Below the pieces are notes generated by a model. It did no database searches, was not told where the DNA came from, and saw nothing but the letters and a program-made list of their open reading frames with translations. This document shows positions 4,181 to 32,487 of a stretch of 32,806 nucleotides of DNA, in pieces. How positions within the stretch are numbered: the first letter of the stretch is position 1; every line of letters begins with the position of its first letter. Where the stretch lies: assembly GCA_044356455.1 (NCBI GenBank), contig JBIKWF010000043.1:1-32806 (forward strand). The letters are read 5' to 3'. Both the position numbers and the translations under genes were made by a program. The DNA comes from Bdellovibrionota bacterium. GTDB taxonomy: Bacteria > Bdellovibrionota_C > UBA2361 > JBGSMV01.

Positions 4181-4317
4181 TTAGGAAATCTCTGAAAAAG
4201 CCTGCTCTGTGAACTCTGTGCCCTCTGTGGTTGATAAAAATAGTTGAAAAACCACAGAGGACACAGAGCTCACAGAGAGAAGAGAAGAAATCTCGAGGTT
4301 TTTCAGAGATTCCTCAG
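4181..4317. mobile_element. MITE family 1, copy 2
   Basis: TTAG-GAAATCTCTGAAAAA ... TTTTTCAGAGATTCC; internal hairpin CTCTGTGAACTCTGTGCCCTCTGTGGTT / AACCACAGAGGACACAGAGCTCACAGAG. Confidence 0.65.
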
Positions 4318-14392: not shown

Positions 14393-14632
14393 CGCCATAA
14401 AGCTTGCTCGCTTCGCCATAAAGCTTGCTCGCTTCGCTCGACGGCGCGTGGGGGAGCTGGGGTGGTTTGGGCACGCCCGGCTCCGCTTCGCTGTGCCGCG
14501 GCGCCATAAAGCTTGCTCGCTTCGCTCGACGGCGCGTGGTGAAACAGAGGTGATTCAAGCACGCCCGGCTCCGCTTCGCTGTGCCGCGGCGCCATAAAGC
14601 TTGCTCGCTTCGCTCGACGGCGCTTTATGGCG
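14393..14632 (-). repeat. 88-90 bp hairpin repeat array A (2 units plus partial, with a 21-bp tandem duplication); not attached to a tRNA
   Basis: Same unit as arrays B-E; begins on the minus strand with ...GTTCGCCATAAAGCGCCGTCGAGCGAAGCGAGC. Confidence 0.95.
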
Positions 14633-14759
14633 AACGCCCACTCTTTCCCCTTGCCGAAATCAGGCTGCGCTAGGGTGACTACTAATTCCAGCCCCTTAGC
14701 GGCATAAAGGGGACCTCGGGTCCCACTCTTGGCTGCGGAGATTGGGTGTCCCAAAGAGA

Positions 14760-15317
14760 TTACCCTGCAAAGTCAAGTGAACTCAATCGAAACTTTTCTT
14801 TGCCTACGGTAACAAAACTGAGAAACTCGATGAATTCTTTTTTGGTCTCATCGAGTGATCTTATGCTGGGGTAGCGAAGGTCAATCAATCCTTCTCCAGA
14901 AAGTATAAGCAAGATCAATGAGTGCTGCGTTTTGTTTTCAATTGCTGCGACGCAATGCACGAGGGCCGCATTCTCAATGATCCCCCTTGTCAATTCCTTC
15001 ACCACACTACAGCTCAACCCTTTCTTGCTTGATAGTCTTGCAAGGACTGACTTTTTGTATTCAGGGAAGAAAGGCTTTGAGATGGCAAGCACTCGACTCA
15101 CCTCTTTAACCGTCCCGTAGGATATCATGAAGGGGACTGGCATTGGCTTCACCATGTTCACAGGTGAGTAAGCGAGCAGGGTGTCCTTTTTGTTGTGCTC
15201 AACCCTCCAAGTCTCGGGCAACCGCAGAATGAATTGGTTCGTAGAGACGGTTTCAGCCTGAATAGGAGAAACTAGAAGTAGTGTGAGGGAGAAAATGAGG
15301 CTGCAGATTTTGATCAT
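14760..15317 (-). CDS. Secreted hypothetical protein (185 aa) between repeat arrays A and B
   Basis: Signal peptide MIKICSLIFSLTLLLVSPIQA-ET; F.LRLPETW motif reminiscent of PsbP/DcrB-like folds. The track's upstream 41 aa are translated repeat. Confidence 0.7.
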   Translation of the reverse strand: MIKICSLIFSLTLLLVSPIQAETVSTNQFILRLPETWRVEHNKKDTLLAYSPVNMVKPMPVPFMISYGTVKEVSRVLAISKPFFPEYKKSVLARLSSKKGLSCSVVKELTRGIIENAALVHCVAAIENKTQHSLILLILSGEGLIDLRYPSIRSLDETKKEFIEFLSFVTVGKEKFRLSSLDFAG

Positions 15318-15336
15318 AGAGATTGCTTTCACCTTG

Positions 15337-15561
15337 GCTTCGCTCTGCCATAAAGCTTGCTCGCTTCGCTTGGCGGCGCGCGGGAGGGCTGGGGTGGTTT
15401 GGGGCACGCCCGGCTTCGCTTCGCTGTGCCGCGGCGCCATAAAGCTTGCTCGCTTCGCTCGGCTGCGCTTGGGGGAGTTGAGGTGGTTTGGGGCACGCCC
15501 GGCTCCGCTTCGCTGCGCCGCGGCGCCATAAAGCTTGCTCGCTTCGCTCGACGGCGCTTTA
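15337..15561 (-). repeat. Repeat array B, fused to the 3' end of tRNA-Ser(GGA)
   Basis: 2 units plus a partial unit, starting directly at the tRNA CGCCA. Confidence 0.95.
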
Positions 15562-15651
15562 TGGCGGAGAGAGAGGGATTCGAACCCTCGATAAGGTTTC
15601 CCCTATACACGCTTTCCAAGCGTGCGCCTTCAGCCGCTCGGCCATCTCTCC
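15562..15651 (-). tRNA. tRNA-Ser(GGA)
   Basis: GGAGAGA acceptor stem, CACGC-TTGGAAA-GCGTG anticodon arm, long variable arm, GGTTCGAATCC, GCCA end. Confidence 0.97.
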
Positions 15652-15813
15652 AAATCTATTTGCTTCCTGCGGAAGCAGATAGATTTTAAGGGAACATGCC
15701 GATAAAGCTACAAGGCAAAAATGAATACCCGGGGAGGGGTGTTCAAGTTTGTTGTCGCGGGCACTTTTGCAAGAATGCCGTTGGGGGATTCTTGTTTGAG
15801 TGTCCTTTTTTAT

Positions 15814-15998
15814 TTGCTCGCTTCGCTGCGAAGAGCTTGGGCGATTTCAGCACGCCCGGCTCCGCTTCGCTGCGCCATAAAGCTTGCTCGCTTCGCTCGG
15901 CTGCGCATGTGAAAGCGGAGGTGATGCGATCACGCCCGTCTTCGCTTCGCTACGCCGCGGCGCCATAACGCTTGTTCACTTCGTTCACTGGCGCGTTA
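15814..15998 (-). repeat. Repeat array C, fused to the 3' end of tRNA-Ser(GCT); most diverged copy
   Basis: First unit CGCCATAACGCGCCAGTGAACGAAGTGAACAAGCGTTATGGCG carries compensatory changes; second unit has an internal deletion. Confidence 0.93.
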
Positions 15999-16092
15999 TG
16001 GCGGAGAGAGGGGGATTCGAACCCCCGATACAGGTTTGATCCCGTATAGCGGTTTAGCAAACCGCCGCCTTCAGCCTCTCGGCCATCTCTCC
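15999..16092 (-). tRNA. tRNA-Ser(GCT)
   Basis: GCGGT-TTGCTAA-ACCGC anticodon arm, long variable arm, canonical T arm, GCCA end. Confidence 0.97.
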
Positions 16093-16254
16093 GCGTGAGC
16101 TACACCTTACGAACATCTCAAATGGGAGACCCATTAGGAGACGCCGCCGATACAAAACGTTTCGGTTTTATATAAGACGAACCTGATATTAAACCAACCT
16201 TGCCCAACTGCTAGTAAGTTAGGAAAGAAAAAAAACTTTTTCTTAAAGCAATAG

Positions 16255-16344
<90 letters not shown>

Positions 16345-16481
16345 GCAGCGAAATGCCCAAAAAGCATTTCGTTGGGGGGAGGTTATCGTAGGTATCCGAG
16401 ACAATGCAATAATTCAGACCCTAACGTTTTTGCCTTCAGGTCATTTATCTGATAGAAATCCACCGCTCAAAGTAAGAATGC

Positions 16482-16558
16482 GCGCCCTTAGCTCAGCTGG
16501 ATAGAGCATCTGACTACGAATCAGAAGGCCGGTGGTTCGAATCCTCCAGGGCGCGCCA
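16482..16558 (+). tRNA. tRNA-Arg(ACG)
   Basis: GCGCCCT/AGGGCGC acceptor stem, TCTGA-CTACGAA-TCAGA anticodon arm, GCCA end; one T.T mismatch in the T stem. Confidence 0.97.
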
Positions 16559-16938
16559 TTTCTTCCTAAAAACCCGTCATTTTCTTGTTGCGGGCTGCCT
16601 TTTGCCCCTGTTTTTGGTGCCTATCGTTGGATAGGTAGCCTGCTTGCTTGCTGGTTCCTCGATTTTCGGGGCCCCTTGCTAGCCAGGGTGCTGTCTGGTT
16701 TTGGAGCAGGCAGGGTTTTCTACCGCCATGGCGGCCTACGCTTGTCTAAGAATGGACAGGTATCACAGAACATTTGCGCCTTCCTTCTTGTGGTCGAGGC
16801 CGTGTGATTTAGGATTGGCTGGGCCATTACTTGTTGGGATTTCGGCGATTCTCAGTTTGAGACGGCGGAAATTTCAACGGAGGCGAGGCGATTTGGTGAG
16901 ATCGGGAAGGACAGGCAGATTTAGGCGATATTGGGGCA

Positions 16939-17502
16939 ATGGAACTTTTTAGCGAAGTATTAAGTGGCAATCTGCTCGAAGAGCTTATGGCGCTGGCTTT
17001 GGCCGAAGCGCGGCGAGCTGCTGAGGAGTTGGAAGTGCCCGTTGGCGCGGTGATATGGACCGATACTGCGTCTTCATCTTCGCCGGCATCCTCGCCCGCA
17101 TCCTTTCTGGGGGGCGCCTTAGACGCCCAGGGGGTCTCGCGAGGGCTAATTCTAGGCCGTGGTCATAACAAGGTAGAACAGCTCCAGCGGGCTACCGCAC
17201 ATGCCGAAATGCTTGCAATTCAAGAGGCGAGCGCAACGCTTGAAAATTGGCGCCTTACGAACTCGCTTCTCGTCTGTACGTTAGAGCCTTGTGTCATGTG
17301 CCTTGGGGCCTTACGGCTCGCCAGGATTCCAGCGGTCGTGTTTGGGGCAGGGGATTCTCGCTTCGGGGCTATGGGATCCGTTTATAATCTTGTTCTCGAT
17401 GATCGTACGGGTCCTGCACCAAAATTCCTTGCCGGGGTGCGTAAAAATGAGTGTTCAGACCTTCTTAAGAGCTTCTTTGCTGCGCGGCGAGTCGCTGCCT
17501 GA
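16939..17502 (+). CDS. tadA: tRNA-specific adenosine-34 deaminase
   Basis: EVPVGAV, TAHAEMLAI, NWRL, TLEPCVMC.GA..LARI..VVFGA.D...GA.GS, ECS.LL..FF..RR motifs; next to its substrate tRNA-Arg(ACG). Confidence 0.93.
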   Translation: MELFSEVLSGNLLEELMALALAEARRAAEELEVPVGAVIWTDTASSSSPASSPASFLGGALDAQGVSRGLILGRGHNKVEQLQRATAHAEMLAIQEASATLENWRLTNSLLVCTLEPCVMCLGALRLARIPAVVFGAGDSRFGAMGSVYNLVLDDRTGPAPKFLAGVRKNECSDLLKSFFAARRVAA

Positions 17503-17548
17503 CCCCTTTCATGAAGTCCCTAGGGCTTCGGAATGTTCCCTGCAACAA

Positions 17549-18424
17549 CTAGCGCGCTTTTGTAAGCTCCGCAGCAGGCGCAGCCGCCTCACCTCGAAAC
17601 ACCCCCTCCGTAATATCTTCAGCTCGATATCCCCGATTGGTATCTAGGCCTTTAAGCCACCAGGTGTGCGCGTGCAGTCGGAGGGGAGCACGAATTCTTT
17701 CATCGAAATAGGTCGGCCAAAGAATACCGTTAATACGCTGGAAATTCTTGAAGGTTACATCGACTTCTGCTCCACGCGTCGAGGGAGAGCCATTTAAGGT
17801 TAGCAGCACGCGAAGTAATAGGTGATTTTCCTTGTCGATTGAGAGTAAGACTCGGTCCTCCTCTGAGAAGCCAAAACCAGGACGGAGAACCGCAGCTACG
17901 GAGTACGTATCTCGTTCATCCACCTTGCCATCCGGGGCCGAGAACCAAGTAACTCCCGATCTCTGGAAGTAAAAAGGGCCCAAAAGGAACAGCCGGTATA
18001 CTTGGGCGACAAGCGTCGAAGATTGGATAATCGCGTCGTCGGTGACGGGCGATGAATTGAGCCATACTTTGCTAGAAGTGGGCGAGGAGGCCACAAATTT
18101 GTTTCCAGCGGGGCCTGTGTGACTCTGACTTATTACTTGCTCAGAAATGAGAAGTCGTTCCTCCGAGCCCTGACGATGTTCAACGTCAGCTAGAATCTTT
18201 TGAAAGCTCGGACCAAGGTATGACCATTCTCCGGCGTATCGTACGTTCAGATCTCTAACCTCTGCAAAAGCTTCAGCTCCGTGCGCACTCATAGACTTGC
18301 GCCAGATACTCTCAGCCTCCCCAGAGGGAGCTTGCGTTTGCAGTCGGCTGAGAGTGGTGGGCGCACATCCGCTGCTCAGGACCAGCAGAGTTACCAATAG
18401 GCATCTTATCACCACAACTTCCAT
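17549..18424 (-). CDS. Hypothetical lipoprotein
   Basis: Lipobox LSSGC; SMSAHGAEAF...FKNFQRINGILWPT pattern suggests an outer-membrane lipoprotein-sorting-like fold; start 18424 preferred. Confidence 0.7.
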   Translation of the reverse strand: MEVVVIRCLLVTLLVLSSGCAPTTLSRLQTQAPSGEAESIWRKSMSAHGAEAFAEVRDLNVRYAGEWSYLGPSFQKILADVEHRQGSEERLLISEQVISQSHTGPAGNKFVASSPTSSKVWLNSSPVTDDAIIQSSTLVAQVYRLFLLGPFYFQRSGVTWFSAPDGKVDERDTYSVAAVLRPGFGFSEEDRVLLSIDKENHLLLRVLLTLNGSPSTRGAEVDVTFKNFQRINGILWPTYFDERIRAPLRLHAHTWWLKGLDTNRGYRAEDITEGVFRGEAAAPAAELTKAR

Positions 18425-18562
18425 CCTTGAGCTCCAAAGTAGTGTGTAAAGGGAAGTCAAACGTAACATTATGGTATTGCGGGACCAAGCGAACTTAAAA
18501 TCGCCAAGGTGTGGATGTGAGAGGCCTTTTTAACGAAGTGCGAGCTTCTACCCCCTAAACCA

Positions 18563-18592
18563 TTGACAGAAAAACCTCTATCGCTCTACCGT
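18563..18592 (+). promoter_or_regulatory. Candidate sigma70 promoter for tRNA-Ser(CGA)
   Basis: TTGACA (18563-18568), 18 nt, TACCGT (18587-18592), about 100 nt upstream of the tRNA. Confidence 0.5.
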
Positions 18593-18695
18593 CCTCCCCC
18601 TGTGGTTTGCTCGACTTGGCACTGCCAGGAGCACCCGAGGAGCGTAGCGGGTTCAGTCCCGCGTACTACCTTGTGGTAAGAGAAAAATCACCCGC

Positions 18696-18787
18696 GGAGA
18701 GATGGCCGAGTGGTTGAAGGCGCTTGATTCGAAATCAAGTATACGGTTAACGCTGTATCGGGGGTTCGAATCCCCCTCTCTCCGCCA
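18696..18787 (+). tRNA. tRNA-Ser(CGA)
   Basis: CTTGA-TTCGAAA-TCAAG anticodon arm, long variable arm, GCCA end. Confidence 0.97.
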
Positions 18788-18906
18788 TAAAGCGCCGCCG
18801 AGCGAAGCGAGCAAGCTTTATGGCGCCGCGGCACAGCGAAGCGAAGCCGGGCGTGCCCCAAACCACCTTAGCTCCTCCGTGCGCCGACTGAGCGAAGCGA
18901 AGGCGC
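18788..18906 (+). repeat. Repeat array D (1 unit plus terminal half unit) fused to tRNA-Ser(CGA)
   Basis: Same unit; ends GCGCCGACTGAGCGAAGCGAAGGCGC. Confidence 0.95.
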
Positions 18907-18911
18907 CCAAG

Positions 18912-19338
18912 CACGAATCCACAAAAAAGATAATAGATCACAGCTAAGAGCAGCTCGTTGCCCCACGCGCCCTGCCCGCATTAATCCGAAGTTCTCCTTT
19001 CCGTCGATCAACACAAGCCCCTGCGGATTCGGAAACTGAATTCATGAGCACCCCAGGAAAGGTTTGTAGTTATGATTGGCAGGGTGTCAATTCGCTCTAC
19101 CGAGTTGCATGCCGCTGAGTATTGGGGGGGGCTTGAAGGTGCTCGATAGAGACTGTGACCACTCTGCTATTTGAGTGCTTTGCATAATTGGAGCGAGGTG
19201 AAATGTTAATTGTTGCAATTGGGGCCTCTGTGCAACGTGCTGAAACGTATCCTAAATTGTGGGATTTTGTTAAATCCTCAGACTGGTGACTGCAAATGTT
19301 TAGAGTATTTGAGCAAGTTGACCAGCGAGCAGTAAGCC
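18912..19338 (+). repeat. ~430-bp non-coding direct repeat, copy 1
   Basis: Identical to 24483-24621 for 139 bp, then colinear with many substitutions up to about 19338/24911. Confidence 0.9.
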
Positions 19339-19577
19339 CGTCACGGCAGTAGACCCACGGGACGACTCTCCAATAGTTCCGGTAATCAATATCATTGCGG
19401 CCAGGAGCTCGAAGAGAGAGGAAGGATCCTCGGACACAAAGAGATCAATCGACGTGTCCTAGCGTCCGAAAGATAAGTGCTAACTCCTCGATGCCTCTTG
19501 TTGTGCTTGACTACTTGGTGCTGTCTGTTAGCGTTCAACAGCACTTTCAAACACCTGGCATCAACGAGGGAATCCCC

Positions 19578-20396
19578 ATGAGAATTATCGCGATTGCGAC
19601 TCTTCTATCTGCGCTCGTAAGTAGCGATGCATTCGCCGCTCCTCTTCGAGTGTGCCTTGATAAGAGTGGAAAACTTATTGCAGCTGCGAAGTGCGGGAGA
19701 GGTCAAATTCCAGTTACTTCCGCAACTCTTGATACTCTTGGATTCCGCGGTGCTCCAGGGACTCCAGGTGCCGCGGGCGCTCCGGGTGCCGCCGGGGCTA
19801 CGGGTGCAACTGGTCCGACGGGGCTGACTGGACCAGTCGGGCCGACAGGGATTGCGGGGCCACAAGGAGAGCCTGGGACGCCTGGTGCGCAAGGTCCAAC
19901 TGGAGAGCCAGGTCCTATAGGTCCAGTCGGCCCTGGTCTAGCTTTGTATGATGCAAATCAGCAGGAGGTCGGGCCGGTCCTCGGCTATGGATGTCCGCTT
20001 AATCCAGGCATCGCAGGCCCCTTCGCCGCGGTGCTAACCTCGCTCTCAATAGAGAGCAAAGTTTATCCCGTTTGCGCAACTCGGGCAGGATTTGTTTTGA
20101 TCCAAGATGTCTTCTTTACTTCGCCAGGTTGCACCGGTCCTATGTATGGGTTCCCGGGAGACTTTAGCGCCGCGCCCGACTCCCTCCTTGCCGGCAACAT
20201 CGTGAATAAACTAGGCGGGCGAACTGTTCTTCTGCGGCCAAATTTTGACCAGGGACGTCAAACTATCAGTAGGAACTCATATCTCAATAGTGAGGGCACG
20301 TGCCTTGAGAATTCCGCAACCATGACCAACGTGCTTTCACTCATCGAGGAAGCGGATCTTTCGGCGCTGTATCCCGCTCCTTTAGTGGTGCGATAG
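19578..20396 (+). CDS. Secreted collagen-like protein
   Basis: GAGGGA RBS, signal peptide MRIIAIATLLSALVSSDAFA, 22 consecutive Gly-X-Y triplets, Cys-containing N- and C-domains. Start 19578 preferred over 19395. Confidence 0.88.
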   Translation: MRIIAIATLLSALVSSDAFAAPLRVCLDKSGKLIAAAKCGRGQIPVTSATLDTLGFRGAPGTPGAAGAPGAAGATGATGPTGLTGPVGPTGIAGPQGEPGTPGAQGPTGEPGPIGPVGPGLALYDANQQEVGPVLGYGCPLNPGIAGPFAAVLTSLSIESKVYPVCATRAGFVLIQDVFFTSPGCTGPMYGFPGDFSAAPDSLLAGNIVNKLGGRTVLLRPNFDQGRQTISRNSYLNSEGTCLENSATMTNVLSLIEEADLSALYPAPLVVR

Positions 20397-20476
20397 ATTG
20401 AGCAAGGGTCATATGCGCAGCGGGACGATTCGTTGGTTATTTCGAAGCTGAGTCGCAGGGAAGCATCGGATCAAGC

Positions 20477-21799
20477 ATGGGAGAGCCGGCGAATCTCAAT
20501 GAGCCCCTCAGTCGAGCTGGTGTCGTAAGCTTAGCCTTCATTTTTTACCTCTGCATAAGTGCTCATCCGTGCCTCGGCGACTCGTCGGTTAACGATCGAT
20601 ACAAACAGCCGATGTCGTTCTCTAGATTCGAGCCTTGCGTTGGAACCGCCTCATTCTGCGGCGAGCACATTCTTGGAATTGGTGTCATTACCGAAAGCAC
20701 CGCGAGCGAGCTGTTAGCTCTGAAACCGGGGGCTGGGCAGGACTTGTATCTACACAGCCCAGGAGGGAGTCTGGTTGGTGGCCTGGCCCTAGGGTACGCG
20801 ATTCGATCGCTGCGACTGGATACAGTTGTCGGTGGTCCCTATGAAATGGAGGATCGGAAGACGGATGAGTTGGTCACGCTTGTTGAAGAGTCCTCTTGTG
20901 CCTCCTCCTGCGCGTACGCGTTTTTAGGTGGCCAAGCAAGAACGGTCGAGGAGGAAAGAGCTCTTCTCTTTCATCAGTTCTACTCCGAGACCGGCAAGGG
21001 AGATCTTTCAGTGACGCAGGACATGGTGGCGGCTCTCCTGTCTTATTTTGATGCAATGTCTGTAGATCGTAAGGGATTGGATGCCGCGTTGAGTACACAT
21101 CCGGGGCAACTGTCCTATCTTTCTCACCAGGAACTCACCCGTCTAAAAATTCATTTTCAGGGGGGATTCTCCGAATCGAGAGACGCTAGTGACGCTCTGG
21201 ATTGGAAGGTGCTTTTTTCGCCTGACAGAGTCCCCTATCTCGAGGCTGATGCTCGGACGAACAGAAATAAGGGAGATCTTACCCTCAAACTTTGGATGGA
21301 GGAAGAGAAAGTAAAATTACAGTTGAGTGTGCTTTGGGATAAAAATATTCCTGCTCAGGAACTAGGGGAGGTATTCAGCATTTTTCAAGCTAAGAATTGT
21401 TATGATTCGAAAGCCAAGGCAATGATACCGTGCGAGAACTCTGATTACCTTATTCACATTGTTAATTGCGCTAGTGCTTCGACATGCCCGACAATCGCCA
21501 CAGCGGATTCCCGAATCATTCTCGGCGAGGCACGGCAATGGATTCTCCCCGTTGCTCTAGATTTCTCTTCCCTCGAGAAGGTGGCTACTTCAAGTGATCC
21601 GAATCTTAAGTTCTTCACCTGTGTCCCAAATGTTTACATTGAGTATGACTTCTGCCCGGAAATTCCCGTGACTCGTCGACTCATTGAACTATTGTCGCTA
21701 TTGCGGGCGGCGGGAGCTGAGGTAGTGAAGCCAAAAGCCACGAAGGATGAGACTGGCAATTGGGTAGATTACTTTAGGCGTCTATTCGCATGGCCGTGA
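20477..21799 (+). CDS. Periplasmic ClpP/crotonase-like-fold protein (COG3904-like) with C-terminal extension
   Basis: LHSPGGSLVGGLALGYAIR...CASSCAYAFLGG..R....LFHQF motifs. Confidence 0.7.
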   Translation: MGEPANLNEPLSRAGVVSLAFIFYLCISAHPCLGDSSVNDRYKQPMSFSRFEPCVGTASFCGEHILGIGVITESTASELLALKPGAGQDLYLHSPGGSLVGGLALGYAIRSLRLDTVVGGPYEMEDRKTDELVTLVEESSCASSCAYAFLGGQARTVEEERALLFHQFYSETGKGDLSVTQDMVAALLSYFDAMSVDRKGLDAALSTHPGQLSYLSHQELTRLKIHFQGGFSESRDASDALDWKVLFSPDRVPYLEADARTNRNKGDLTLKLWMEEEKVKLQLSVLWDKNIPAQELGEVFSIFQAKNCYDSKAKAMIPCENSDYLIHIVNCASASTCPTIATADSRIILGEARQWILPVALDFSSLEKVATSSDPNLKFFTCVPNVYIEYDFCPEIPVTRRLIELLSLLRAAGAEVVKPKATKDETGNWVDYFRRLFAWP

Positions 21800-21909
21800 T
21801 TCGATCCTGCCAAAAGTCGGAAAAGCGTCTGAATAAAGTGTTTCACATTACTTGCGCGGCGCGCTAGTCTTTCGCGAAAGGTGGCCCTTTGACGCCATAG
21901 GAGAATCAT

Positions 21910-22689
21910 ATGCACTTTTCTTCTAAGCTAGCTTTCTCGTCTCTCGTGTTTTTATTCACAGCCTGTGGCGGAGGAGGGGGGGGGAGTTCGGACAGCTCTA
22001 ACGCATGCGACGATCTCAATTTAAGGGTGTTTGGTGGAGACCAATGCAACTACTCCCGAAGCCCTGTTGTCGCAATTGTGGGTTTTTCGTTAGAGGGAGC
22101 TCCGATTAGTAACTGCTCGGCCACGATGGTAACTGTGAATGATGCCCTGACCGCGGCGCATTGTGTTGCCGTGGCGTCTTCCCCGGGTGGTGCCGCGGTG
22201 TTTGCCGACGGTCGATTCCACAATATTGTAGGGGGCCGCAATCATCCATTCTATGACGGTCAGGTAGATTCTCCTTACGACGTAGCAATGATTACCATCG
22301 ATAGCGTTTTGGATATCGGCCCCGTTCCTCTACTGATTTCCGACCCGATAGCCACGGGCGAGCGCATTACTATTTTTGGTTATGGGCGCAACGAAAATTC
22401 TGGCTATCAGCCTCAGGCAGAGGATTTTCGGGCGGGTTTCATGGAGATTGGGGCGGTTACCCCTTTCCAGTTCAGCGCTTCGTTCGATAGCACCGGCAGC
22501 GCTATTTGCCAGGGGGATTCAGGGGGGCCCGCTACCCAGACCGTCGGTGGGATAACCTCCGTGGTTGGGGTTACAAGTTTTACCGTTAACGGCTGTCAGG
22601 ATGGGTCAATCTCTGGTTTCGTGAACGTTCAAAACCCAGAAATTTACGAGTTCGTTAAAGCATACGCGGCTGATGTAACTTTGCGGTAG
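21910..22689 (+). CDS. Trypsin-like (S1) serine protease, lipoprotein
   Basis: AGGAG RBS, lipobox FTAC, catalytic motifs LTAAHC, DVAM, CQGDSGGP. Confidence 0.93.
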   Translation: MHFSSKLAFSSLVFLFTACGGGGGGSSDSSNACDDLNLRVFGGDQCNYSRSPVVAIVGFSLEGAPISNCSATMVTVNDALTAAHCVAVASSPGGAAVFADGRFHNIVGGRNHPFYDGQVDSPYDVAMITIDSVLDIGPVPLLISDPIATGERITIFGYGRNENSGYQPQAEDFRAGFMEIGAVTPFQFSASFDSTGSAICQGDSGGPATQTVGGITSVVGVTSFTVNGCQDGSISGFVNVQNPEIYEFVKAYAADVTLR

Positions 22690-22753
22690 TCCCGGGTTTG
22701 AGAGAGGAATTCCGCATCTACGAAATTGATAGGGCCCGGCGTTTGAGGCGCGA

Positions 22754-23794
22754 TTAGGACACTCCCATTCCAGATAATTTTCGAAGTAGATTTTGTACGT
22801 TGTTCAATTCGCGGGTGAATTCTCGCTTTGTTCGGACAGTCGCTGCAGAATTTAGTGTAGAGATAATTTTCTTGAGAACAGCGCGTCTTCGACCATCCGC
22901 AAGGCGATTTAACTGATTGACCGCCTTTGCTAGAGCGTTAAAATTTTTGACAAGTGTGGGGAAGTCCTTCGCGCGAATCACGCTACCGCAGGTTTTAATA
23001 GCCTTATCGGCTTTGGTCTTGAATTCGATCAGGCGTCCGGAAACGAACTGAATATCAGCAAATTGGAATAAGAACGCCTGCGAAGAGGTGGATTGCAGGT
23101 CGACGTAGAAAGACGAGTCGTTCCCTGTAGCGACACAAATTCCAGCCAGTACTTGGGTAGAACCTCCTGAGACCACTCCTATAGCGGCAGAGATCTTTCC
23201 AAATTGCTGTACAAGAGGGCCCCCTGAATCACCGGAGCAGGTACTGGCGTTTGACAAGTTCAAGAGTGTTTCGAACATCCCCGGTGGGAGAGTTGCGATT
23301 CGCACGGGAGCTGCCTTGGCAAGCAAGTCGGTTGTTTCATTCGCCCCGAATCCCCCTACAACAGCCAGCTCGCCAGACCTCACTGGATCGTCCAAAAGAA
23401 TCGGGGTAGGGAGAGCCTCCGTAACGGGGTTGCTTAGTTCAAGGACTCCCAAATCATGACGGTTATTAAAGAGGCTAAAAGGAACGGATCTTATGTAGAA
23501 AGGATGGATGTATCGCTGGCGCACGGACCGTAGTTGACCGTAAAGCCCCACAACGTAAGCTTCGTTCGGAATTTCCGACTCAAGGCAGTGTGCCGCGGTT
23601 AGGACCGTACTGGATCCCACAAGTAATCCGGAGCAACGACTCCCGTCGCCGAACTCAATGTAAGCGAGGTTTGTGTTGTAAGGATCGATTGTTGTGCCGC
23701 CAAGTAAGGGGGATGTTCCATGCTCCTGTGCCGCTAAGGGTATAGTGAGAGCTAGGATGAATATAGAAAGAGAAATGAGCCCCCTGGTAAGCAT
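22754..23794 (-). CDS. Secreted trypsin-like (S1) serine protease with basic helical C-terminal extension
   Basis: Signal peptide, LTAAHC, DLGV, CSGDSGGP; about 90 Lys/Arg-rich residues after the protease domain. Confidence 0.93.
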   Translation of the reverse strand: MLTRGLISLSIFILALTIPLAAQEHGTSPLLGGTTIDPYNTNLAYIEFGDGSRCSGLLVGSSTVLTAAHCLESEIPNEAYVVGLYGQLRSVRQRYIHPFYIRSVPFSLFNNRHDLGVLELSNPVTEALPTPILLDDPVRSGELAVVGGFGANETTDLLAKAAPVRIATLPPGMFETLLNLSNASTCSGDSGGPLVQQFGKISAAIGVVSGGSTQVLAGICVATGNDSSFYVDLQSTSSQAFLFQFADIQFVSGRLIEFKTKADKAIKTCGSVIRAKDFPTLVKNFNALAKAVNQLNRLADGRRRAVLKKIISTLNSAATVRTKREFTRELNNVQNLLRKLSGMGVS

Positions 23795-24029
23795 ATTGGC
23801 CTCGCTGGTTCTTGAACTCTAAGCCTGGGATAGCACAGGGGAGCTAGAGAATCATCCGTTACCTTGGTGACCCTAAGTGCCTTAACGCTAGTTCGAGGCT
23901 CGTCCTTGGGACACTCCTGGGGCAATCCTTGGTAACTCATCATCGAAAAGCACTTTCAATCACCGTATCCGATCCACTCTAACTGCCTAGAAATATGGGA
24001 AAACATCGTCGTGATGTTTCGGAAGTGTG

Positions 24030-24091
24030 GATTCGAAATCAAGTATACGGTTAACGCTGTATCGGGGGTTCGAATCCCCCTCTCTCCGCCA
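24030..24091 (+). repeat. Displaced 3' fragment of tRNA-Ser(CGA) (att site)
   Basis: Exact copy of 18726-18787; the 5' half of the tRNA is absent. Confidence 0.92.
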
Positions 24092-24477
24092 TAAAGCGCC
24101 GCCGAGCGAAGCGAGCAAGCTTTATGGCGCCGCGGCGCAGCGAAGCGGAGCCGGGCGTGCTGAAATCACCCTATCTCTCCCGCGCGCCGCCGAGCGAAGC
24201 GAGCAAGCTTTATGGCGCCGCGGCGCAGCGAAGCGGAGCCGGGCGTGCTGAAATCACCTTAGCCCTTCCAAGCGCCGACTGAGCGAAGCGAGCAAGCTTT
24301 ATGGCGCCGCGGCACAGCGAAGCGAAGCCGGGCGTGCCCCAAACCACCTTAGCTCCTCCGTGCGCCGACTGAGCGAAGCGAGCAAGCTTTATGGCGCCGC
24401 GGCGCAGCGAAGCGGAGCCGGGCGTGCCTCAAATCACCTCAGCCCTTCCGTGCGCCGACTGAGCGAAGCGAAGGCGC
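24092..24477 (+). repeat. Repeat array E (4 units plus terminal half unit)
   Basis: Unit starts at 24096, 24184, 24272, 24362, 24452 (periods 88, 88, 90, 90). Confidence 0.96.
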
Positions 24478-24482
24478 TCACA

Positions 24483-24911
24483 CACGAATCCACAAAAAAG
24501 ATAATAGATCACAGCTAAGAGCAGCTCGTTGCCCCACGCGCCCTGCCCGCATTAATCCGAAGTTCTCCTTTCCGTCGATCAACACAAGCCCCTGCGGATT
24601 CGGAAACTGAATTCATGAGCATCCCAGCAAAGGTTTGTAGTGATGGTTGGAAGGGGGGGCAATTCGCTCTCCCGAGTTACATGCTGCTGAGTATTGGGGG
24701 GGGGCTATAAGGTGCTCGTTAGAGACTGTGGCCGCTCCGCTATTCGAGTGGTTTGTAAAATCGGTGTGAGGCGAGATGTTAATTGTTGTAATTGGGGCCT
24801 CTGTGTAACATGTTGAAATGCATCAAAAATTAGCGAGTTTTGTTAAATCCTCCGACTGACGGCTGTAAATGTCTAGAGTGCTCAAACCGTTCGATCTGCG
24901 AGTGGTGAGCC
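24483..24911 (+). repeat. ~430-bp non-coding direct repeat, copy 2
   Basis: Colinear with 18912-19338. Confidence 0.9.
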
Positions 24912-29331: not shown

Positions 29332-30300
29332 CTACGGCATGGTATTCCGAAACGGATACATGCACCATTTAAGCACCGAGAGGCAGGGGGCGACGCGTAG
29401 ATCTACAAGGTCCCCGCCAAGTTGATTCTCAAGTTCTCGGGTGATTTCTGGTACATCGCTAAGATTGTTCACTTCTATTGAGACTTCAAAGTCCCAAGTG
29501 CCAAGGGCTTTTACCAATGAAGTGACTCTCGGGTGAGTGGAGCAGAAGTGAAGTACCTTATCCGCCGAGGCGGCGCCAAAGCTTTTCACAGCGATGAGAA
29601 GCCATACCACTTGAATTCCAATTCTTGAGGTTTCGAGCTGGAATATAGTGCCGTTGTATACCTCTGCTGCCTGAAGTTTTTTCATTCGATATTCTAAGGT
29701 GCTCGCAGGAGCTCGTGCCATTCGGCTTAGTTCCGAGATTGATGCGCGCGGACTCGCTGCTATGGCCTTAAGCAGCTGATGGTCTAATTCATCAATCGTA
29801 ATTCTGTTCTCTGGGCGCTTTGTGGTGAGGGAAGTCAACCCAGACTTTGTGGCATCAAGGTATCTTCTTCTGAACTGAGTATACTCAAGATACACTCCAT
29901 GGGTCTTTCGAAGGAGAGATACTCCTGTCTGGTTGCAAAGATCGGTAAGAAGTTGTGCCGCACTCCAGGGGTCGCGGTGCAGCAATGAAGCGCCAAATGA
30001 GAACTCTCCCCCAAGTTCCATCACTTGAAGCACTCGCTCCGAGTTAATAAGCGCCTGGAGAAACTTGTCACGTGCGCGTCCTCCCGAGCAGGAGAAGTAT
30101 ATTGAATATTCAAAAAGTCCCAGAGCATAAGGATTTATAAGCGCGTACTCTGAGAGCACTCCACGGGTATGATACGAAGCGATCGTGCGTCTTACGGAGT
30201 GTGGCTGGCAGCCGGCAAGTGTGGCGAGTTGAGAGATGGGAAGGTCTGCGCGAAGATGGATCTGAGAAAGAATTCTTCGGTCGCGCTCACTAAGGTTCAT
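29332..30300 (-). CDS. Lrp/AsnC-family regulator with tandem-duplicated modules (paralog of 934..1902)
   Basis: Same length (322 aa) and shared motifs LRAD, PH.VR, GGE, LDH..LKA, L.YR...L, G.WD.E, YPFR. Confidence 0.85.
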   Translation of the reverse strand: MNLSERDRRILSQIHLRADLPISQLATLAGCQPHSVRRTIASYHTRGVLSEYALINPYALGLFEYSIYFSCSGGRARDKFLQALINSERVLQVMELGGEFSFGASLLHRDPWSAAQLLTDLCNQTGVSLLRKTHGVYLEYTQFRRRYLDATKSGLTSLTTKRPENRITIDELDHQLLKAIAASPRASISELSRMARAPASTLEYRMKKLQAAEVYNGTIFQLETSRIGIQVVWLLIAVKSFGAASADKVLHFCSTHPRVTSLVKALGTWDFEVSIEVNNLSDVPEITRELENQLGGDLVDLRVAPCLSVLKWCMYPFRNTMP

Positions 30301-30471: not shown

Positions 30472-30587
30472 TTAGGAGCTCGTCTTGCAGGAAGCTTTCA
30501 CCACTATAAGTTGTGGAGGGCAGGGAGACACTCTCCTAGGAGTCTGTCCAAAATGCAAATTCATGTTTCTCCGGGACACGCTCCTAG
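30472..30587. mobile_element. MITE family 2, copy 1
   Basis: TTAG-GAG...GGGACACGCTC-CTAG; colinear with 32371-32487; internal CTCCTAGGAG junction at 30533-30542. Confidence 0.65.
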
Positions 30588-31383: not shown

Positions 31384-32253
31384 ATGGACCCTATTACAAA
31401 CCGTAAGATTTCCGAGGCCAACGGGCAGCCCGCTCCTAAGGCCGTTCTCGGCGTGGGTGAAGGAATCGATGAACTGCTGGCACTGCTTGCTCATTGTGAA
31501 GCTAGTCACCTTGCTCGAATGGAGCCGGATAAGCTTCTTCGAAAGGAACTCGATTTTCATGCGGGGGCGGAGGCTTCATGGAATCTTATTGAGCAGCGCT
31601 GCGGGGCGCTTACAAGGATTCAGAGTGAGGTTGCCCAACAAATGTCCTTGGTGCATGAAGCGCTTAGTAAAGACATTCGTGAATTGCTACTTGAGGCAAT
31701 TGTAGGTTTCTACTCGAATCCAACATTCGAGTTAAGAGAATCTGTGGAGAGGGATCTAGAAGCAGCCCAAGATTCTAATACGCTTGAGCTCGTATACAAT
31801 AAGCACATGGGAGACTGGCCCGTCGAGCAATATTTTGCCGGCAATTCGCCGTTCGTTTGTCTTCGCACGCTTGAGCTAACCAAGGCGAGTGTAGAGTCGG
31901 TAGGGACAGATGCGCGCCGTAAACCTGAGGCGCGAACTCTATTCGATTTTCTCGCGGTCGAAATGTTTGCTCGTTTTGATGTCGCGCTAAGTGATTTTGG
32001 CCTTGCCCAGCGGAAAGAGTTTTTCTTGGCTGAATCGCCGGAAGTTTTGCTGCAGGAGCAAAGACTTCAATGCGTACTTAGTTTCCTGGTGAGAGTCGGA
32101 TTTATGGGAGAAGAGGACAGGCAATGGATTCGTGGGCTAGAGCCCGCGGTCTTTGAGGGGGAGGTTTGCCGGGCTTTTTGTCTCTTTCTCCGTGATCGGG
32201 GCGGAGTTCCTATTCAAGGTGACCCGCATGGGGGGAACTCTCTAGGCTTCTGA
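31384..32253 (+). CDS. Hypothetical protein
   Basis: Long ORF with GGAGAG RBS before ATG 31384; no recognised motif; the stop codon lies inside the following MITE. Confidence 0.65.
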   Translation: MDPITNRKISEANGQPAPKAVLGVGEGIDELLALLAHCEASHLARMEPDKLLRKELDFHAGAEASWNLIEQRCGALTRIQSEVAQQMSLVHEALSKDIRELLLEAIVGFYSNPTFELRESVERDLEAAQDSNTLELVYNKHMGDWPVEQYFAGNSPFVCLRTLELTKASVESVGTDARRKPEARTLFDFLAVEMFARFDVALSDFGLAQRKEFFLAESPEVLLQEQRLQCVLSFLVRVGFMGEEDRQWIRGLEPAVFEGEVCRAFCLFLRDRGGVPIQGDPHGGNSLGF

Positions 32254-32374
32254 AAAAACAACCTCTGTGCACCTCTGGAGCCTCTGCGGTGAATTTTCAT
32301 CAAGAAATTCACCACGGAGGACACGAAGGTACACAGAGGTGTAGTGAGAATGGGGTTTTTGGAGGTTCCCCTAG
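32242..32374. mobile_element. MITE family 1, copy 3
   Basis: CTAG-GCTTCTGAAAAAAC...GTTTTTGGAGGTTCC; interior closely matches 1954-2018 (TTTTCATCAAG.AATTCACCAC.GAGGA.ACGAAGGTACACAGAGGTGTAGT). Confidence 0.65.
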
Positions 32375-32487
32375 GAGTCTGTCCCGTAGAAAATTTCTAC
32401 CACCACATGTTGTGGTGGCAACGGAACAGCCCACCTACGGATTGTCTCCAAAATGAAGATTCATGTTTCTACGGGACACACTCCTAG
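32371..32487. mobile_element. MITE family 2, copy 2
   Basis: Inverted repeats GGAGTCTGTCCCGTAGAAA / TTTCTACGGGACACACTCC (19 bp, one mismatch) with CTAG at both ends. Confidence 0.75.

Follow-up and report, generated by a model that had tools for sequence, protein, structure and literature searches.

Tandem two-hairpin arrays at serine tRNA 3' ends in a Bdellovibrionota genome and their likeness to the leaders of small GIY-YIG genes

Some genomic islands are integrated at tRNA genes and are accompanied by displaced fragments of the tRNA 3' end. A second kind of tRNA-anchored sequence is found in E. coli, where the tRNA-linked repeats (TLRs), one to five tandem copies behind tRNA genes, are described as having an unknown function in the accessible part of the paper by Stenum et al. 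(2021; PMC8144298). Repetitive extragenic palindromes (REPs) and bacterial interspersed mosaic elements (BIMEs), including GTAG- and CGTC-tagged families, are short, GC-rich and extragenic, and are often found clustered or reiterated in tandem (Di Nocera et al., 2013; PMC3733652, accessible part). Closest to the present case is SsnA, a GIY-YIG protein of 94 amino acids (aa) whose cleavage of its hairpin repeat is reported to be limited to single-stranded DNA (ssDNA) and, there, to one of the two strands (Chenal et al., 2025; PMC11893778, accessible part). The locus described here is a stretch of 32,806 nucleotides (nt), hereafter the window (contig JBIKWF010000043.1, positions 1 to 32,806 of the forward strand), from a Bdellovibrionota bacterium (assembly GCA_044356455.1, 4.7 Mb in 216 contigs; G000), which carries five arrays of 88-90 bp units, four of them at tRNA-Ser 3' ends. 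The reading moderately favored here is that these arrays are tandem, gene-less two-hairpin modules, which likely act as ssDNA and likely stem from the leader of a small GIY-YIG gene at tRNA 3' ends.

An initial annotation of the window, made from its letters alone, had placed the arrays at 14393-14632, 15337-15561, 15814-15998, 18788-18906 and 24092-24477, and all five are present there, each starting, in tRNA sense, at a CGCCA. Tandem Repeats Finder recovered three of them, with periods of 88, 89 and 90, 90-92% matches and 2.4, 2.4 and 4.2 copies, and those of tRNA-Ser(GCT) and tRNA-Ser(CGA), which are shorter or deleted, were detected as repeat families instead. The four arrays that abut tRNA-Ser 3' ends (GGA, GCT, CGA and a 62-nt CGA fragment) do so always in tRNA sense, as annotated. 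In each unit, hairpin 1 precedes hairpin 2, and a variable spacer follows. Hairpin 1 (43 nt, tRNA sense) has the form CGCCA-TAAAGC-[GCCGYC GAGCGAAGCGAG CAA]-GCTTTA-TGGCG and pairs back onto the CGCCA end of the tRNA. The proposal that the tRNA supplies the left arm of this hairpin is borne out for the first copy, which includes the last five bases of the tRNA; the left arm CGCCATAA is present only in that copy of each array, and later units re-enter within hairpin 1 and keep the right arm alone. Hairpin 2 reads CCGCGG-C-GCAG-C-GAA-G-C-GGAG-CCGGG in the arrays and is followed by a C-rich spacer of 23-24 nt. In the 10 spacers listed every unit differs, yet all are variants of one C-rich sequence; a CRISPR array was considered and rejected on this account, and no cas gene is found among the 24 window proteins. 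By blastn against the 4.7-Mb assembly the whole unit is restricted to the window, with one 28-nt match elsewhere, and the hairpin-1 core has 13 matches in the assembly, 13/13 within the window. The GCGAAGC motif is found in tRNA sense only, with 32 occurrences versus 0 in the opposite one. The unit, which the annotation had not recognized, has no Rfam match at the gathering threshold, where tRNAs alone were found, and the sub-threshold matches (sX4, plastid) overlap tRNAs.

The proposed connection with a nuclease comes from hairpin 2, whose C-GNAG-stem-C-GNAG motif matches the leader of small GIY-YIG genes lying behind tRNA and tmRNA genes. Closed by three pairs, this motif occurs in 26/59 distinct leaders versus 0.3 expected by shuffling. 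A covariance model was built from 23 leader modules, none of them from G000, after 3/26 extracted modules (L083, L087 and L129) had been dropped before alignment as mis-paired, and the 12 best-ranked window hits of this model include 11/11 array hairpin-2 copies, every one in tRNA sense. Counts of paired positions in the alignment of leaders are inflated, the modules having been selected for pairing, and are not used as evidence. Hairpin 1 is followed in relatives by a canonical nuclease-leader module, and the frame GCCGCGG...(A/C)CGGG, common to the arrays and to the leader of a tRNA-His-linked nuclease gene, gave 49 matches versus 2 in the control. Upstream sequence of at least 400 bp is available for 63 of 80 metagenome homologue loci, and 43/63 show a same-strand tRNA or tmRNA 3' end within 600 bp, which is that of a tRNA-Ser in six cases; in the order, 18/26 small-gene loci sit behind a tRNA or tmRNA, mostly in opposite orientation. 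The GIY-YIG association that the initial annotation had put forward for checking is hence seen at the level of the family, through these leaders.

The Ssn system with its NTS/SRM repeats combines a small single-domain GIY-YIG gene (SsnA, cd10448) with an oriented, strand-specific hairpin repeat that also occurs gene-free and for which a REP-like expansion has been proposed (PMC11893778, accessible part). The present module would resemble it in these respects: its motif is shared with the leaders of such genes, with no gene beside any Ser copy. Unlike SRM, whose degenerate pattern matches 0/5 arrays and 0/59 leaders, the module has tRNA 3' ends as its anchor, and the words "tRNA" and "tandem" are absent from the main text of the Ssn paper. 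With REPs and BIMEs it has in common a short, GC-rich, extragenic palindromic make-up, tandem clustering, and GTAG-like and CGTC-like tetramers in some array copies; however, tRNA-Ser ends are the only sites of the whole unit, hairpin 2 alone being dispersed, and GNAG occurs twice as an internal loop instead of as one terminal tag (PMC3733652). GIY-YIG is not mentioned in the accessible part of that paper, where "tRNA" appears four times, in connection with modifying enzymes and synthetases. As with E. coli TLRs, tandem units stand directly behind a tRNA gene, but a TLR finishes with 18-19 bp that repeat the tRNA 3' end exactly (PMC8144298), whereas the array units hold only a 5-nt complement. 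The module would work like Ssn-SRM and REP/BIME yet fails the SRM-pattern, RAYT (REP-associated tyrosine transposase) and TLR tests. No description of tRNA-anchored GIY-YIG hairpin arrays was found in a literature search of main texts, largely of papers outside subscription, and the main text of Weinberg 2017 (PMC5737381) does not mention GIY-YIG. If the nuclease link holds, it would explain how tRNA-linked tandem repeats, of unknown function according to PMC8144298, come about, and Ssn-like nuclease/hairpin pairs would gain a tRNA-anchored branch together with a new candidate ssDNA recognition motif; what this locus newly contributes are the orphan copies and the genome-specific amplification.

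The arrays are younger than hairpin 1, whose occurrence is linked to tRNA-Ser ends. A degenerate hairpin-1 pattern, which itself includes CGCCA, gave 13 matches in 6/124 genomes of the phylum, and its reversed control gave 0. The enrichment at tRNA 3' ends that the annotation had put forward for testing is complete outside G000, where 8/8 matches directly adjoin the 3' end of a tRNA-Ser (7 detected by ARAGORN and 1 truncated at a contig end). A scan of 185,579 species genomes with a strict, exact pattern free of CGCCA hit 5 loci, spread over 4 genomes: in 3 of these the hits are at tRNA-Ser ends, and in the fourth a chance match falls inside a coding region. Hairpin 1 is kept across five families of the order, mostly as a single copy, and the tandem expansion of its unit is specific to G000. 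The isoacceptor that bears it varies, being GGA and GCT in G033 and GGA and TGA in G008, G014 and G019; in the window, tRNA-Ser(TGA) (16255-16344, minus strand) and tRNA-Arg(ACG) have no array, as originally recorded. The Ser tRNA cluster of G001 is interrupted by a contig end, and in G002, G003 and G004, of the same family and 81-93% complete, hairpin 1 is absent from the Ser tRNAs, other trailers occupying the place. Over the first 70 nt, identity is 0.92 within a genome (6 pairs) and 0.70 between genomes (49 pairs, maximum 0.79), or 0.73 between genomes for the same isoacceptor (12 pairs). This higher within-genome likeness points to spread or conversion among clustered Ser genes.

Across 11 hairpin-1 copies, 98.8% of the cells are paired with 19 double-sided changes, a result reached by 0/500 shuffles. 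The covarying pair 20-26 and an invariant C-G fix a GAA triloop beside invariant G-A/G-A. Because d(GCGAAGC) is an exceptionally stable DNA mini-hairpin, with RNA counterparts that are much weaker (PMC13037366, accessible part), we take the structure to be one of ssDNA: a GAA triloop closed by C-G with tandem G-A is more in keeping with DNA than with RNA. An RNA-level trailer element similar to the E. coli TLRs would have hairpin 1 mask the CCA end or terminate transcription and so modulate pre-tRNA 3' processing, tandem copies arising by passive slippage. Such an element would account for a left arm made of the last five bases of the tRNA on the transcribed strand, for a hairpin that folds as an 11-bp stem in RNA and for its conservation across the five families, and it has a precedent in the 22 tRNA-linked repeats of E. 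coli (PMC8144298, accessible part). However, the isoacceptor concerned changes between genomes, no terminator-like site was found at any array, the RNA fold of a 398-nt array is no better than shuffles (z +1.5), and the defining feature of E. coli TLRs, tRNA 3' sequence, is missing from later units. The DNA-type loop and the three same-family genomes that carry other trailers at the same tRNAs also appear to count against the role in pre-tRNA 3' processing that the annotation had suggested. We regard the RNA trailer as unlikely, and give a role of the RNA in masking the CCA end the same low standing.

Under the ssDNA reading, the module would fold when DNA becomes single-stranded, either at the replication fork or in the transcription bubble of a highly transcribed tRNA gene, and its hairpin would be the target of nicking in trans by a small GIY-YIG nuclease whose gene lies elsewhere. 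The module would then pass from one isoacceptor gene to another when the nick is repaired on a clustered Ser tRNA gene with an almost identical 3' half, and units would be gained or lost through repair or slippage at the recurring GCGAAGC motifs. Nicking in trans, repair on sister Ser ends and GCGAAGC slippage would together explain both spread and copy number, and the same breaks may have favored a 5.3-kb insertion at tRNA-Ser(CGA), described below. Sequence comparison establishes how the module folds, what it is homologous to and where it occurs; nicking and every later step we infer from them. The arrays are likely gene-less remnants of a selfish-looking nuclease system rather than a serine-tRNA processing signal. 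A broader idea, put forward only tentatively, is an integrase-free, tRNA-targeted mobility in which GIY-YIG nicking in trans copies and amplifies orphan GNAG modules and makes tRNA ends hot spots for cargo, of which the 5.3-kb Ser(CGA) island would be an example.

Several observations weigh against the nuclease reading. The strict motif is unmatched in 33/59 leaders, single-copy scores of the leader model are weak (E 0.016-0.97), and two of the five hairpin-1 covariation measures, taken on related sequences, do not rise above shuffles (197/500 and 420/500). GIY-YIG genes are absent from the window and from the 11 relative hairpin-1 loci scanned. The only small GIY-YIG gene in G000 encodes 92 aa and is located behind tRNA-His, preceded by hairpins and by its own start in four copies; its product matches Pfam PF01541 and, with E 4.6e-6, UPF0213 (PDB 1zg2), and has no match in NCBIfam. 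In a quick tree of 86 columns, whose "CGNAG" label is a loose pattern and which is relied on for the His clade only, this resident nuclease belongs to a His-linked clade (SH-aLRT 97). The hairpin of that clade has a plain CCCC/GGGG stem without a GNAG loop, and the resident nuclease may therefore not recognize the arrays. A genome-wide search with the leader model scored 150 of 2444 candidates. Finally, 33 closer-scoring hairpin-2 copies, with a four-base loop, lie at non-tRNA sites in G000: 29/33 are within 200 bp of ends of the miniature inverted-repeat transposable element (MITE) type, and 0/33 are within 600 bp 3' of a tRNA. Hairpin 2 of the arrays may derive from this dispersed, MITE-linked family, or MITEs may instead have captured it.

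These dispersed copies also support a MITE- or RAYT-driven origin of the REP/BIME kind, in which hairpin 2 would be a transposase-spread palindrome captured behind tRNA-Ser and amplified as in BIMEs, GIY-YIG playing no part. REP clusters are often tandemly reiterated (PMC3733652, accessible part), the genome has three Y1 transposase matches, and array 1 adjoins a dispersed repeat. Yet the Y1 matches have other palindromes, the gene at C172 being flanked by a different GTAG-type one, and the HUH/RAYT association raised by the annotation was not found, as the unit flanks no RAYT and has no copy outside the window. The unit also lacks terminal inverted repeats and target duplication, and hairpin 1 of relatives has canonical nuclease-leader modules after it; we hold this origin to be distinctly improbable. 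Scattering of copies, the outcome that the annotation had opposed to its proposal, applies to half of the unit, since hairpin 2 is found genome-wide and the whole unit only in the window.

The repeat next to array 1 is a dispersed sequence of about 120 bp, unrelated to the arrays (14633-14753, minus strand), with 11-bp terminal inverted repeats and at least 7 other copies in the genome (7 aligned). Its right end is the CGCCA hairpin of array 1 in place of the CCA seen in the other copies; array 1 is joined to the truncated end of this repeat, not to a tRNA. This arrangement suggests that a short CCA-ending homology can act as a junction.

Tandem amplification is not Ser-specific, because tandem repeats follow 18/47 tRNA and tmRNA genes of G000: direct repeats of at least 40 nt start near the 3' end of these 18, a few of which extend into the array of a neighbor or a partial tRNA copy, versus 3/47 on the 5' side and 1/300 at random positions. 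Many tRNA trailers are affected, with unrelated units that differ between tRNAs (periods 77-148), and the Cys, Asp and Val-CAC trailers do repeat the tRNA end. The annotation's inference of a mobile or amplifying element targeting tRNA 3' ends is in this way partly upheld: amplification is tied to tRNA 3' ends, whereas a self-contained, Ser-specific mobile family does not fit the 33 non-tRNA sites of hairpin 2, the unrelated units at other trailers and a window without any nuclease, integrase or transposase gene.

At tRNA-Ser(CGA) (18696-18787, plus strand), a tRNA fragment, the array and a flank of about 400 bp occur twice, 5.3 kb apart, on either side of four cargo genes (19395-23794), which encode a collagen-repeat protein, an unknown protein and two trypsin-like proteases. 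The displaced fragment (24030-24091, plus strand; 62 nt) starts in the anticodon stem and is identical to 18726-18787. The non-coding flank at 18906-19305 (plus strand) recurs at 24483-24879 with 88% identity, 100% near the array and declining with distance; it lacks an open reading frame (ORF), and a comparison with 90 other genomes gave three hits of 25-33 nt, none of them convincing. As in tRNA-integrated islands, the segment 18726-24030 is bracketed by a direct repeat of the tRNA 3' part from the anticodon arm, but no integrase lies between the repeats and the duplication runs through the array and about 400 bp beyond. The bracketed cargo and duplicated flank, and four integrase genes elsewhere in the genome, would suit scars or arm sites of elements that a tyrosine integrase directs to tRNA-Ser. 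This origin appears very unlikely for the arrays, given that the window has no integrase, that the GGA and GCT arrays have no displaced fragment, that the units do not repeat the tRNA end, that the single conserved copies of relatives have no islands in the flanks examined, and that two hairpin-1 patterns gave 0 matches in viral contigs.

The arrays differ in their details. Array 1 (14393-14632, minus strand) contains a full hairpin 1 at 14590-14632 and two hairpin-2 copies, ends with a 21-nt partial duplication and has no upstream tRNA. Array 2 (15337-15566, minus) lies behind tRNA-Ser(GGA) (15562-15651, minus), whose last five bases, 15562-15566, are taken into hairpin 1. In array 3 (15814-16003, minus), behind tRNA-Ser(GCT) (15999-16092, minus), the first unit is the most diverged and shows compensatory changes, and there are internal deletions. 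Array 4 (18783-18906, plus) consists of hairpin 1 (18783-18825), hairpin 2 (18825-18852), a spacer and a partial second unit, and array 5 (24087-24477, plus) of 4.2 units with hairpin-2 copies at 24129, 24217, 24306 and 24396. The copy numbers are those of the assembly, whose fragmentation into 216 contigs could suggest an assembly artefact of a metagenome bin; with a different spacer in each unit and a first unit that recurs in five other genomes, this explanation is exceedingly improbable.

Around the arrays, an ORF for a hypothetical protein of 186 aa without Pfam or NCBIfam matches lies between arrays 2 and 1 (14760-15320, minus), and a perfect hairpin stands immediately 5' of tRNA-Ser(GGA) (15652-15686), where G014 and G019 have different perfect hairpins. 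Among the small GIY-YIG genes, a second clade (L108, L109, L111, L116, L117, L122, L128 and L136) faces tRNA or tmRNA ends with a different hairpin type, and hairpin type follows the nuclease protein tree, a quick tree, with 2 changes versus 7.8 when shuffled. In G000, the region C146:9590-11480 holds tRNA-His, a hairpin array, the small GIY-YIG gene and a toxin-antitoxin-like gene pair bracketed by His-type hairpins, and a similar pair with the same hairpins is found on C191. Two further tRNA loci are unusual: at C134:3560-3884 a partial 5' copy of tRNA-Trp with an inserted hairpin precedes the intact tRNA-Trp, and at C209:10250-10690 (pieces at C101:56451 and C69:4914) a tRNA-Leu(TAA) missed by ARAGORN is apparently split in its anticodon loop by an insert of about 360 nt. 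This insert holds GNAG hairpins and a His-type hairpin, along with motifs that may be group-I-intron-like. Elsewhere in the window, MITE-like repeat copies (families D13-D15 and D19) occur at 1931-2034, 4181-4310, 32239-32360, 30539-30587 and 32439-32487, and two double-length Lrp/AsnC-type regulators are encoded at 934-1902 and 29332-30300.

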